From: Octopus sinensis
Taxonomy: Eukaryota
Direction: 5' to 3'
NCBI RefSeq assembly: GCF_006345805.1
Contig: NC_043002.1
Location: forward strand, 83,638,001-83,702,000
DNA length: 64,000 nucleotides
The position numbers and the translations under genes are program-made. How positions within the stretch are numbered: the first letter of the stretch is position 1; each line of letters opens with the position of its first letter. Of this stretch, positions 16,569-64,000 are shown piece by piece. The notes beneath the pieces were generated by a model, which was not told where the DNA came from, searched no databases, and saw only the letters and a program-made list of their open reading frames with translations.

Positions 16569-17012
16569 CAACCAACCAGCCAACCAACCGACAAACCAAC
16601 CAACCAGCCGACCCACCGACCAACCAACCAGCCAGCTAACCAACCGACCCACCGACCAACCAGCCCACCGACCGACCAACCAACCGACCACCGTCCAACC
16701 AACCAACGAGGCAACCATCCAACCAGCCTGCCAACCAACCGACTAACCAGCCTGCCAACCAACCGACAAACCAACCAACCAACCAGCCGACCCACCGACC
16801 AACCAACCAGCCAGCTAACCAACCGACCAACCAACCAACCAGCCAACCAACCGACCAACCAGCCAACCGACCCACCGACCAACCAGCCCACCGACCGACC
16901 AACCAACCGACCACCGTCCAACCAACCAACGAGGCAACCATCCAACCAGCCTGCCAACCAACCGACTAACCAGCCTGCCAACCAACCGACCCACCAACCA
17001 ACCAACCAACCA
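16569..17012. repeat. Degenerate (CCAA)n tetranucleotide array with higher-order duplication
   Basis: CCAA/CCGA/CCAG variants. The block caccgtccaaccaaccaacgaggcaaccatccaaccagcctgccaaccaaccgactaaccagcctgcc occurs twice. The long ORFs here are artefacts of the repeat. Confidence 0.85.
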
Positions 17013-17732
17013 ACACTTCTGTTGGCTGTTATTTCTATATAAAGGTCACTGAATAAAAGATGGGTTGGTCACGACTTGATGTCTTCGATCATAGACCTGT
17101 TCGATTAGGCCTTCGTGAGGGCTGGACAACAACAACAACAACACCATATATTTAATACGACCGATATTCTCTAGAATTAGGAACCAGGTGTTGTTTGCGT
17201 GAGTATGGCACCATATCCATCAATCTGGAATACAATTGACAGGTCACCTTATCAGGTGCATAGTAATGGTACACTAAAATTACAATAATCTAGAGCTGTT
17301 ATAACCGTCTCTCATACAAAGGCCTCAAAACCTCTGGCACGCACCTCGTAATTATATAACCTACGTGTAAACATTTATTAATTTGTTTCGGCACTTCAGA
17401 ATTTTTTATCGTTTACTTTGTCATTGGACTGTGGCTATGCTGGAGCACCACCCTGAAAGGTTTTAGTTGATGAAATCGATCCGTCTACCAAATTCACTCA
17501 CAAGACATTGGTCAGCCTGGAGCTATAATAGAAGACACTTACCCAAGGCGCCGTACAGTGGGACTGAATCAGAATCACAGTTATCTGTGTGCATTCCTTG
17601 TTATTGCCGTTTTCGAAATCGAAAATCACCAGTTGTGGGGAAGGGTAAATTTGTTTTGAAAACTAAAAATCTGATAGAAAAGAAAATTATTGAAGTTAGA
17701 AAACAGCTGAATATAAGAGAAATAATATTTAA

Positions 17733-19257: not shown

Positions 19258-19451
19258 TACAGTTCTATATTTAAGAAACGAGGAATTATGTACAATATTT
19301 ACATTCGACGGATATTTGTCCTCATCTTGTTTGTTGTTAACATAACGTTTTGGCTGATATACCCTCCAGTCTTCTTCGGGTGTCTTGGGGAAATTTCGAA
19401 CCTGGGTTCTCATTCCTAAGGTATTTTTCGACGTTTTTATTATTATTATTA

Positions 19452-19515
<64 letters not shown>

Positions 19516-19615: not shown

Positions 19616-19653
<38 letters not shown>

Positions 19654-19803
19654 CATCGAAAAATACCTTAGGAATGAAACCCAAGGTTTGAAATTTCCCC
19701 AAGACACCTGAAGAAGGCTGGCAGGTATATAAGCCGAAACGTTATGTTAACAACAAACAAGATGAGGACAAATAACCGTCGAATATAAATAATGTAAATA
19801 ATT
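19258..19803. mobile_element. Head-to-head pair of a tRNA-headed, (AAT)n-containing, hammerhead-bearing element
   Basis: 19290-19435 is the reverse complement of 19652-19803. Palindrome centre accactacgccatatgccc|gt|gggaatatggcgtagtgc at ~19536. tRNA-like A box tggcgtagtgc and B box gagttcgattcc at 19538-19610. Confidence 0.8.
19703..19748 (+). ncRNA. Minimal type I hammerhead ribozyme motif
   Basis: gacac-CTGAAGA-a-GGCT-loop-AGCC-GAAA-CG-TT-atgtt. The inverted copy at ~19339-19385 (-) has core mutations (CCGAAGA, AAAA). Confidence 0.7.
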
Positions 19804-20819
19804 TTCATTAGTATGTTGTTATGAGCGTATCAAAGTCCGTAAGATAGTAGAAGCGATAGCTTGGCGAACAAAATACTTCATATTTTGAGTTCGTTCACCT
19901 TAGAGTCAATTTGCCTTTCATCTCTTTCGAGGTTGCAAAAGTAAGCACCAATCAAATATTGGAGTTGATCAAATCCGTGTGGCTTTGTGCCAATATTAGA
20001 AACCATTGTGAGGTCACTCAATCGTTAATGTAGGAAAAATTCTTTGCGGTATTTGTTCCGGCTTCTTACATTCTGAGTTCAGTTTTCGCCGAGGTCAGTT
20101 AAGCTTTTCATCTCTCAGGTGTTGATGAAATTAAGTCCCAGTCAAGTACTGACCCTGTGTAATCAACTAACCTGCTTTCCGTAAAAATTGCTGTCCTTCT
20201 GCTTTAATTAGAAATAATTATTGTATATATTCAAGGATGGCTGACAAACCGAAGCGTTAGAGCGCCAAGCAAAATGCTCTGCGGTGTTTGTCCCAATTCT
20301 TTAAATTTGGGGATCAAAACCCTACGGAATTTATCTTTTTGTTCCATAACGGTGGATTGACCGAATCATTAAGGCATTGGACGAAAGGCTTCACGATATT
20401 GTTGTACCGGCTTTCAAAATTCAAGCATTTCTTCCATGAAAGGTCACCTAACGGGAGACAAACATGAGAGGTTTATATACATACAACCCTTTTAGCCCCA
20501 GTAAAATATTCTCTTTTTGTGTCCAAAGTGTGCTTATCTACTTCATAAAGTCTTCTCATCGATTTCTGAACCCGGTGGGTCGTTGTATCGTTTCACGTTA
20601 GTCCAGCTGAACATGAGCGTTGATGTGACCTCCTTCGGTCATGAATGACCATGGAATTGCACCCAGAAAGTCACCCTCTGAGGTACAAGTCTGGGTAAGG
20701 CTGTTTATGGAAGATCAGCAGTCGCCCACGCATACCAGCCTCCCCACTCCACGCCACCAATGTTATCCAAGGGAAAGGCAAAGGCCGATACTGCTCGGCA
20801 CCAGTGACATCACAACTCA

Positions 20820-21137
20820 TTTATTAACGTGTAAGTGGCTGAGCACTCCACAGACACGTGTACCCTTAACGTAGTCCTCGAGGAGATTCAGCGTGACACA
20901 GAGTGTGACAAGGCTGGCCCTTTGAAATACAGGTACAACAGAAACAGGAAGAAAGAGTGAGAGAAAGTTGTGACAAAAGAGTACAGCAGGGTTCACCACC
21001 ACCCCCTGCCGGAGCTTCGTGGAGCTTTAGGTGTTTTCGCTCAATAAACACTCACAATGCCCGGTCTGGGAATCGAAACCACGATCCTACGACCCCGCGA
21101 GTCCGCTGCCCTAACCACTGGGCCATTGCGCCTCCAC
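20820..21137 (-). mobile_element. SINE family D, tail type 2
   Basis: Family D head joined to the tail gtacctgtatttcaaagggccagccttgtcacac...ggagtgctcagccactt, which is also found behind a family-C-like head at 33440-33775. Confidence 0.8.
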
Positions 21138-21321
21138 AACATGAGCATTATTCTACTGCTAATGCAGCCATTTCTCTTCTCCAGCTGTCATATCTCCTAG
21201 ATCAAGCATGAGAAGACTGAAAGCGTGTCTATGTTAGCTCGTTGATATGATTAGCAAACCGTGGTACCAAATATCAGGTAATACTCGCTAGCGAATGACT
21301 GCTAAGCTTATGCATGTACAT

Positions 21322-21479: not shown

Positions 21480-21615
21480 AGCTGGTTTTTTCTTTTTTCT
21501 GATGAAAATCACGTGTCCGAAACGTTGAAGACCCTTTTCGTCTCCTTTCAAGCATAATACTAATAACATTTTTGTTAAAACGTGTTCCTCTCATTGTGTG
21601 CCTTTTTGTTTTTGT
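21480..21615 (+). mobile_element. Degraded copy of the 3883-4075 hammerhead element
   Basis: CTGATGA (21499) ... GAAACGTT (21519). Stem II is disrupted. Downstream sequence is similar to 3970-4065. Confidence 0.5.
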
Positions 21616-21673: not shown

Positions 21674-21959
21674 CCATTCAGGCTCATACACTCGCACACA
21701 CTCACGCGCGTGATTTTGGTGACTATACATCGAATGTATACTGCACCACGAAAAATCAAATTATAAATGTGAGGAAAACAAAAAGGAAAAAATCATTATC
21801 CTAATAATATAGCTTAGTTTAGAAAGTCACACCAGAATTTAAATTGACAGAAATATTGTTGCCATTACGTGTTTTACTATATTTTAAAGAAAATAATAAA
21901 ACATGCTTTAATTAGAAATATTGAATTTCTAAATGTCTCAGAGAGACACGAGCGGTGGT

Positions 21960-22265
21960 GGAGTGATAGAGTGGTTGTATACTGTCAACATAGCGTGACA
22001 GTCCCGTAAAGGGAATTACACCACCGCTATTTAACCCTAGGAAGCATCGACGCTTCCTGTCGGCTTTGACACATTTCCTGTGTCCTTATATTTGCGAAGG
22101 GGAGGCAAGCACCCCTACCAGCTAGGACTAGCAACCTGAAGACATGCTTGTTTCTGGGTCTTGCCCGTCATCAGTCCAGGGTAGCTAGTCCTGCTAGTTG
22201 AGATACTTAGTTGAGATAATAAAACATGCGTAATTCTTACAAGCAAACAAACATAACCCTGGGTT
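21960..22265 (-). mobile_element. Retrozyme-like non-coding element
   Basis: Structured ~300-bp unit holding the canonical hammerhead and extra hairpins (caggaagcgtcgatgcttcct; ctgtcacgctatgttgacag). Boundaries are approximate. Confidence 0.5.
22124..22192 (-). ncRNA. Canonical type I hammerhead ribozyme
   Basis: Minus strand aggactagctaccctgga-CTGATGA-cGGG-caaga-CCCa-GAAA-CA-agca-TG-TC^-ttcaggttgctagtcct. Long stem I with internal loop, intact core, GUC cleavage triplet (cut between 22141 and 22140). Confidence 0.85.
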
Positions 22266-22664: not shown

Positions 22665-23495
22665 CATACATACGTGTGCAGTGAAGTATACATATATGAG
22701 TAGGTCTGTCAACGAATAAATCGAATGTCGAACGGATTTCTGAAGAAAATTAAACTCGTATAACGAGCTGAAATTTGATCAACGAATCACGAACTGTCTA
22801 CGCACGCAAATAAGTGAGATCCAATTCACGCGACGATCTGGTATTTGAGTAACAAATCAAGAGTAAGTTAAGCAAGCGTATAAGTGCCGGGAGAGTATAT
22901 ACTAACGTACGTTAAAATAGACAAATTGTATGGGTGTCACTCATTCGATTGCGACGACGAGGGTTCCAGGACATCCAACCAACAGAACAGCCTGCTCATG
23001 AAGTTTGACACGCACACCCCTGATGTAGTTCTCGGGAAGATTCAGCGTGACACAGAATGTGACAAGGCCGGACCTTAGAATCTCAGGTACTACTCATTTT
23101 TTCCCAGCTGAGTGGATTGGAACAACGTGAAAAAGCGTACCTTGCTCAAGAACACAACGCGCGATCGTAAGCCGAATACCTCTAATTACTAAGACATGCG
23201 CCTTCACAGATAAATTGTTTGGTGAGCAGGGGTTTTTTTTTCCTTCTTTTTTCTTTTTTTTTTTCAGAAAATTCTGTTCAACCAACGAACTGAAATTCGA
23301 ACAACAAACTATGAATGGACAACGCACACATAAAAATGGCGGCGAGATCGTGTACAAACGGTTTGTTAACGTCCATGTATGCATTTCATGTAGCTTGCAA
23401 ATTTTCATACTTTATACAGAAAAAAATTTATCACGCATATTTTGCTAAAAACACAACCATAGTTCGACAGAAGCAAGATAACGGGAACACACACA

Positions 23496-62734: not shown

Positions 62735-64000
62735 ATCTAGGACTACATTCTTCTATATGTCCCTTTTTTTTCAAGATAAAGAGCGTTGACTCCTTTTTCT
62801 GAAGAATTTAGTTGATGTTTCTAACACGTCAATCGACCATACTGAGGCTCCTTCGTGACCTTGAGCTGTTGATGGTGAAGGTGTTGCATATAAACTGAAG
62901 TAGTCACGATTTCAGCTCCAGACAACATTACATAAAGTGAAAAAAAAAATTAAATATTAAAAATAAAGTTAAAATAGAATTGAAAAGGTTATATTTTATA
63001 TTATTTTTATGTCATCCAAAGTTTCGGTTGAGCAAGATTTATTGTAAACGACGCAGTCGCTTTATTTTCTTTATTTTTAAAGTTTACGTGCAAGAACATT
63101 AAGTTTGTTTTGTTGTTGTTGTTGTTGTTGCTGTTGTTGCTGTTATTGTTGTCTTTTTTAACAATAGATTTGAAATCACAGTCCGGCAATATTGTACTTT
63201 GACTGACTTGCTTGACAACTTCTTTATCGTTGCAGAAGCAATTGTTAATCGCTGGCTCAATTCACTCAGCCATAAATATGTAACATTATATAAACTGCGG
63301 GAGTGCTTAGTGGTGGTGGTGGTGGTGGTGGTGGTTGGAGGTTTCATACTCGAGGACACAGTTAAAACCAGGACTGATAAAGGCCTGGAATGAAAATACA
63401 GCTTTGCATTTACTTCGTCTGGCATTCCAATGACCTTGCCGATTAGCCGCGTAGAATTGATCTATTTTTATTGATTTATGTATACAAGCACAAGAGACTG
63501 AATTATTATTGTTTTTCTTGTTACTTCTGATTGTTGCTGTTGTTGTTGTTGTTGTTATTGTTGTTTTGCCCCATTCAGCGTTCATTGACCAAGGCTTTAA
63601 TCAAGAGAATTTCTACTACGACCATCCTATCTTTGCAAATACTGATAAGGCACAGAAAGTGTGTCAATAGCCAACTGGAGGAGATGTCCTCCTGGTGCTA
63701 CAAGCAACAGTAGCATCAACCCTTAAGGGTTAGCCACATTTAAGTGGCAAATATACTTCACGTTGTCTTGCAGCTATTGTTTATACCTTGCTCAGAGATT
63801 TATTATAGCATCCTATCTTTTTATCTTTTTTTATCTTAGCCTATTGTTCGATTTAACACCAGCATTTGATCCTTAGTTGCCTACACAGAGTTCACTCTGT
63901 TAGCAGCTTTTGCGTCCGGTTTCCCATTTTTGGATAGCTTCCTTTCTTCTTTATTTACCAAAACTCAGAGACCCAGGCGAACCGAATCGCATTTTCATTT

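Follow-up and report, generated by a model that had tools for sequence, protein, structure and literature searches.

The element on the minus strand at positions 22208 to 21912 of the window (the whole stretch of 64,000 nucleotides analysed here, from Octopus sinensis, contig NC_043002.1) is very probably a 5'-truncated copy, with its target-site duplication, of a non-coding repeat, 354 nt long, in which a type I hammerhead fold is conserved and which was likely copied into the genome by the RT/GIY-YIG protein of a Penelope-like element (PLE). It is best classified as a likely partial copy of a non-LTR retrozyme, likely mobilised by PLEs. This kind of element is known, although no paper on cephalopod retrozymes was found in open PMC and bioRxiv texts, and the family may already be catalogued in Repbase or Dfam or in the supplements of papers. 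The earlier note, written from the sequence alone, had also proposed a partial copy of a non-LTR retrozyme, and dispersed homologues and a 354-nt head-to-tail unit bear this out; the Penelope-type insertion signature, by which its movement is explained, is missing from that reading. The features of the window copy are listed below.

22216..22229, minus strand: target-site duplication, 5' copy, 14 bp; the same 14-mer flanks both sides
22209..22215, minus strand: 7-nt stutter at the 5' junction, repeating the element's own first bases, as read in the sequence
21912..22208, minus strand: probable retrozyme copy, 5'-truncated, about positions 58-354 of the 354-nt unit; homology starts at 22208
22135..22180, minus strand: type I hammerhead with proximal stem I, core, stem II with its family-wide C-A base, and stem III
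between 22141 and 22140, minus strand: predicted hammerhead cut
22107..22208, minus strand: extended stem I, about 30 bp with internal loop and bulges, from the fold and the family alignment
within 22107..22208, minus strand: 5' strand of extended stem I, which is the LINE target in other copies
22148, minus strand: private U-to-A change by which the stem III palindrome is lost (1 of 77 copies)
21953..22090, minus strand: downstream hairpins and multibranch arm with an AC-rich single strand (folding z -3.9)
near 21966, minus strand: the family's first preferred 3' end, unit position about 300 (38 of 79 arms end at unit 286-313)
21912..21965, minus strand: 'tail' of about 54 nt with two terminal hairpins at its end, from the fold and the arm ends
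21912, minus strand: the family's second preferred 3' end, unit position 354 (25 of 79 arms end at unit 346-360)
21893..21906, minus strand: target-site duplication, 3' copy, 14 bp, 5 nt beyond the element end

Proximal stem I pairs 22180-22175 (5' strand) with 22140-22135 (3' strand), both read on the minus strand. Between them lie CUGAUGA (22174-22168), a C (22167), GGG (22166-22164), a 5-nt loop, CCC (22158-22156), an A (22155), GAAA (22154-22151), a 3-bp stem III with a 4-nt loop, and GUC (22143-22141). The CUGAnGA/GAAA/NUH core, the three stems and the open-ended stem I of the type I class are all present. The canonical core reported earlier for this strand is therefore at its stated positions, and the GGG/CCC stem II with its 5-nt loop and the 3-bp stem III with a tetraloop can likewise be read in the sequence. 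Stem I, described as about 16 bp with an internal loop, does consist of 6 bp, the loop and 9 bp, but continues to about 30 bp. The further hairpins noted downstream were located at 21953-22090, together with the two terminal ones in the tail. The extent had to be redrawn: a unit of about 300 nt at 22265-21960 had been proposed, and the element occupies 22208-21912 of a 354-nt unit. It is, as had been stated, the only copy in the window.

The evidence for the family comes from the 2.72-Gb genome as a whole, in which a first look gave 2358 candidates (40 scored) and the exact 34-nt core occurs 46 times. With stem II left free, intact cores were found in 274 copies, and the reversed control gave 0. 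The unit of 354 nt is defined by head-to-tail junctions, at 45 of which position 354 is directly followed by position 1, and these come from several subfamilies; numbering follows a real copy, L011, with the cut after position 125. The window copy is 93% identical to L011 over unit 62-354. The unit is non-coding and low in GC, bears a type I hammerhead, lies within the 150-450 nt range of retrozymes and folds with z -6.3. Among the 100 listed of the 274 cores, only 1 pair of hammerheads at unit spacing was found (L162), so that the proposed check for tandem multimers returned at least one two-hammerhead tandem; the longest tandem seen, also L162, has about 1.8 units. The element contains no ORF-like protein family and no RT and GIY-YIG ORF of its own, and neither a tRNA-like head nor a poly(A) tail of its own was found, in agreement with the earlier statement that ORF and tRNA head are absent. 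Eighteen ORFs of the window have no Pfam family. Contigs from four runs, three presumed to be RNA and the fourth probably DNA, were aligned to L011 and mainly cover unit 140-320. Those of the presumed RNA runs, searched as assembled contigs only, contained no unit-spanning piece and no circular joint, which speaks neither for nor against circles; the flank of one contig matches the genomic sequence beside copy L049, as read-through would give.

The manner of insertion can be seen from the ends of the copies. Of 79 arms selected by their core, 63 end in two classes, 38 at unit 286-313 and 25 at unit 346-360, which gives two fixed 3' ends about 54 nt apart, the first of them in the AC-rich strand. 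Ten of the other 16 arms end at unit 196-276 and 6 fall in the bin over 360, where 2 are the chimeras L161 and L077 described below, mis-binned owing to the rotated query. An inverted 5' partner accompanies 64 of 173 pooled insertions, a non-random pool drawn from ranked or pattern searches, beside the 45 head-to-tail junctions. Where both ends of an inverted pair could be classed, 40 of 45 pairs carry one end of each class (p 8e-8), and by analogy with PLEs this pairing is the one-sided PLE 'tail'. The element ends adjoin AT-rich DNA or microsatellites; the AT repeats 3' of the element end vary among copies and are often duplicated 5' as the target, and flanking repeats of at least 9 nt were found at 25 of 102 insertions, compared with 2% of mismatched pairs. 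PMC11167929 maps the PLE tail between two internal RT start sites, one of which is AC-rich, and the Naiad preprint (10.1101/2021.04.23.441226) lists these insertion traits as PLE characteristics. The two 3' ends, paired inverted insertions, partial tandems and AT-rich targets thus point to a non-LTR retrozyme that is likely PLE-mobilised. A third class of 3' end, at unit 79-94, was considered as a further RT start site and rejected, being the 5' junction of a LINE. Elsewhere in the window, an inverted pair of another repeat (19284-19471, minus strand, and 19616-19803, plus strand), 90% alike over 188 nt, has a hammerhead-like core at 19708 and encloses a TAA microsatellite and a SINE-like piece in a PLE-type layout. 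The retrozyme copy is itself flanked by two related SINE-like repeats, each with a tRNA-like head (about 20810-21140 and about 22950-23200). Octopus-type SINEs and the only LINE match with a species name, to Argonauta, fit an octopod as the likely host. A CAAC-rich array of 446 nt with a 223-nt higher-order period lies at 16569-17014.

Two copies met in core-only samples, L161 (C2, 71.82 Mb) and L077 (C9, 95.92 Mb), run up to GUC and consist of PLE 3' sequence from there on; within those samples they are the only two that end at GUC, and they involve two different PLE families, in which the cut sites at the junctions are predictions from atypical cores. In L161 the PLE part begins with the base that follows the GUC/GUU of a hammerhead-like motif of PLE family B; this part is 94% identical to L132 over about 250 nt, and the junction has 3 nt of microhomology (GTC). 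The PLE part of L077 begins directly behind the predicted triplet of a relative of PLE family A. Across 23 other loci, the motif is found in that exact register in 9 and 10-15 nt earlier, behind a longer AT linker, in 7, and the remaining 7 are truncated or inverted before it. The L077 junction has no terminal bases in common and is carried by both inverted arms, with the PLE tail on one only, so that either the template itself or the source from which it was copied was a chimera. Targeted patterns yielded 7 matches with non-family bases after GUC, and no third chimera was among them (2 known chimeras, 4 point mutants and 1 chance match); nor was a reciprocal chimera, with a PLE 5' part and a retrozyme 3' part, present among 21 matches. 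Exact starts at position 126, the first base past the cut, make up 8 of 21 compared with 1 of 21 at a control site (p 0.02), a modest excess, whereas the ratio of 5' ends to point mutants, 14:5 compared with 11:10 at a control site more prone to chance A matches, is not different (p 0.20). As far as genomic copies can tell, the chimeras suggest cleavage in vivo followed by ligation or template jumping; no literature on such cut-site chimeras was found in open PMC and bioRxiv texts.

A cycle may be proposed on this basis. Rare tandem loci would be transcribed, and their hammerheads would cut at GUC, probably aided by dimerising via the palindromic stem III. The cut ends would then likely be joined, as a circle or by cross-ligation, or bridged via a template jump, and the PLE enzyme would nick AT-rich DNA, start at an internal RNA site at unit position about 300 or 354, and copy back across the cut site, halting at variable points. 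With both start sites located downstream of the cut, a copy reaching past it on the upstream side requires a circular template, a jump or a precursor left uncut. Tandem precursors are rare (one unit-spaced pair among 100 listed cores), which makes joining the favoured route, though not a proven one. We consider it an even call whether the full reading holds: that in vivo, cut RNA ends become joined, whether they stem from one element or from different ones, that the joined (circular or chimeric) RNAs are templates of the Penelope RT, and that a Tx1-like LINE has in addition specialised on the hammerhead stem, with the ribozyme left intact just past its poly(A) signal. If it does, the two chimeras would be fossils of the joining and would give direct genomic support to the circular-template model, which was proposed for PLE tandems in 2014 (PMC4209133) and gained no support from the in vitro work of 2024 (PMC11167929).

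An alternative that we regard as possible but rather unlikely agrees on PLE mobilisation and on the classification, and differs in the template alone. The templates would be uncleaved linear read-through transcripts, the hammerhead would be kept for another step, and the chimeras would be rare switches at common short motifs. According to PMC11167929 (2024), cleavage is dispensable in vitro and no reads end at the cut site, which is in line with this account, as is the GTC microhomology in L161. Copies with a LINE tail require no ligation, and L009 and L162, in which a LINE 3' end precedes the hammerhead, are equally explained by uncleaved read-through templates, which counts against joined ones. 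However, both arms of L077 carry the junction, which is exact on either partner and shares no terminal bases; tandem loci of the length needed to template more-than-unit copies are rare; and 8 copies start exactly past the cut.

The LINE in question is L1/Tx1-like, a clade assignment made from domains only, has a fixed 3' end and sits in the 5' strand of stem I. Both junctions are present at 6 of 10 loci examined (L256, L257, L260, L261, L262 and L091), the 5' one at unit 79-94 and the 3' one at about 62-74; one junction is present at L258, L259, L263, L264, L009, L162 and L163. The inserts between the junctions, whose kinship is based on junction sequences and ORF1 peptides, are 1.6-2.1 kb long, mostly with ORF1-like peptides, and occur in several subfamilies. 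ORF1-only short forms are also present, and two further loci have endonuclease, RT or zf-RVT frames at the same stem I site. From 167 LINE 3' ends found, 20 were read in list order (L265-L284), the first, already known, being skipped. Eleven of these precede a recognisable hammerhead of this family or its sister families, 5 precede only a short stem-like start, and nothing related comes after the other 4. The proportion of 11 in 20 lies above the 20% that PMC4494074 uses as a criterion. The duplication keeps the hammerhead intact about 55 nt past the LINE poly(A) signal. Target-specific Tx1 LINEs (Tx1 into Tx1D, Keno, Tx1-Mar; PMC4494074) are likewise endonuclease/RT/zf-RVT LINEs inserted repeatedly into one site of another repeat; unlike theirs, the target here is a ribozyme stem, which becomes a candidate new target for site-specific LINEs. 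No paper on LINEs targeting hammerheads was found in open PMC and bioRxiv texts. The sister hammerhead families (L267, L275, L276, L280, L281 and L283) differ in their stems and palindromes and retain the same core with the additional C and A at stem II, as well as a related hairpin downstream. The window contains a fragment of one such family at 63631-63669.

Potential partners are numerous in this genome, which has 18,573 PLE RT candidates, few families of which were inspected, and abundant intact PLEs with RT and GIY-YIG and open frames of up to about 800 aa. By their linker cysteines, the RT and GIY-YIG elements look like Neptune, a clade of PLEs. Loci L095-L137 represent young, abundant families with open 782-aa frames, and their hammerheads are minimal and atypical, with U-A or A-U at core positions 3 and 8; PLE families A and B have a short motif in common at the start of the tail. 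At 21499-21543 of the window, plus strand, there is a further hammerhead-like motif with a palindromic stem III, which may be left over from the end of a PLE. A search of loci L091-L137 gave no autonomous PLE whose terminal sequence aligns with the unit, and only a 9-nt terminal motif is common to the unit and one PLE family. Two copies 5.6 kb apart on C12 were tried as pseudo-LTRs around a PLE ORF and rejected, being one copy split by RTE-like and ORF1-type insertions.

Given so large a pool of PLE candidates, it was considered whether the copies are solo pseudo-LTR fragments of an unsampled autonomous PLE and no independent retrozyme. Their insertion signature is the same as that of PLEs, and 5'-truncated PLEs leave such pieces, according to bioRxiv 10.64898/2026.07.22.740005. 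This explanation is improbable and already weakened, however, since the unit closes on itself, from 354 to 1, at the 45 junctions in several subfamilies; the long ORFs beside copies are LINE ORFs or, once, an unrelated PLE fragment 280 nt downstream with no common sequence; and the hammerhead, canonical and long in its stem I, contrasts with the minimal ones seen in PLEs of this genome.

For the hammerhead itself, folding of the region compared with shuffles gave z -4.2 on the minus strand and -0.86 on the plus strand, and z -3.3 for the whole stretch. A loose core pattern has 11 matches where 9.3 are expected, that is, not above chance, and the suggested check against Rfam gave no hammerhead match to the element at any threshold, perhaps because stem III is short and stem II has an additional C and A at its base; the Rfam microRNA matches are the flanking microsatellites, and there was no other credible match. 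With the bare motif at chance level and no Rfam match, the case for the hammerhead rests on the family. An alignment was made of 77 of the 105 distinct hammerhead stretches, after truncated, chimeric and partner-arm rows were dropped. In it 91.3% of cells pair, compared with 24-45% in slid controls, the rows having been chosen by core and the copies being related. Two-sided changes number 80 cells compared with 27.6 in shuffles that ignore relatedness (0 of 500 reach 80), and two of five covariation measures, the pairs with two-sided change and the further pair types, are not above shuffles. Four of the six pairs in proximal stem I covary, as does the middle one of the three in stem II; stem III is nearly invariant and thus uninformative. 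On this comparative ground the hammerhead is real, its stems I and II being backed by compensatory changes between subfamilies, and cleavage at GUC is predicted. The alternative of a satellite-like repeat, or of a SINE moved by LINEs, whose hammerhead is a resemblance due to chance or decay, draws some colour from the missing Rfam match, the chance-level motif and a predicted minimum-energy fold of the window copy that lacks stems II and III as drawn; it is highly improbable in view of these two-sided changes, the sister families that hold the same core with different stems, the absent tRNA head and poly(A) tail, and the PLE-type inverted partners with one-sided tails. The C-A closing pair of stem II had been taken as a mutation from U-A, and turns out to be the majority state of the family (5' base C in 66 of 77, T in 10 and G in 1; 3' base A in 76 of 77), so that repairing the pair tests nothing.

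Within the family the window copy is probably an ordinary insertion, inactive as a source and a dead end. Of the 77 aligned copies, the window copy alone lacks a perfectly palindromic stem III: at the loop III position corresponding to 22148 it has A, and all 76 others have U. The stem III self-duplex is predicted at -5.8 kcal/mol for the window copy compared with -13.3 for the intact palindrome, and the hammerhead fold of the monomer lies 2.0 kcal/mol above the predicted minimum. With a single hammerhead and with unit positions 1-57 missing, the locus itself cannot give a unit circle; in a read-through transcript it would be cut once at most, and no unit RNA would be released.

Several comparisons place the family among known systems. 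It extends retrozymes to a cephalopod genome, it offers countable genomic evidence (junction-exact chimeras, 5' ends that fall on the cut, two start sites) on what the hammerhead does in Penelope-type transposition, and its protein-free 354-nt template is a small substrate for testing that role. With the metazoan non-LTR retrozymes of Cervera and de la Pena (2020; PMC7229834; mussel, 350-390 nt; axolotl Rtz_353) it shares a canonical type I hammerhead with a short palindromic stem III, a unit of about 350 nt with less than 50% GC and no ORF, long target-site duplications and strong folding, and axolotl HHR_Amex2 has a mismatch at the base of stem II as here. Unlike them, it consists mostly of dispersed copies of less than one to 1.5 units, without long arrays, displays an explicit PLE tail and inversion signature, and is known here from genomic copies. 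With PLE pseudo-LTRs, as treated in PMC4209133, PMC11167929 and 10.1101/2021.04.23.441226, it has in common the two internal 3' ends, the one-sided tail, the inverted 5'-truncated partner, partial tandems, AT-rich or microsatellite targets and an extra nucleotide between core positions 9 and 10.1. It differs from them in the absence of an ORF and of an alignable autonomous partner among L091-L137, in a tail of about 54 nt compared with 30-40, and in a full-size hammerhead. The preprint bioRxiv 10.64898/2026.07.22.740005 describes non-LTR retrozymes as non-autonomous PLE derivatives in 31 vertebrates, 3 insects and 1 coral. On the mobilising partner, the same conclusion is reached here; the basis in that study is co-occurrence and pLTR homology, whereas in this mollusc it is insertion anatomy and junction chimeras.
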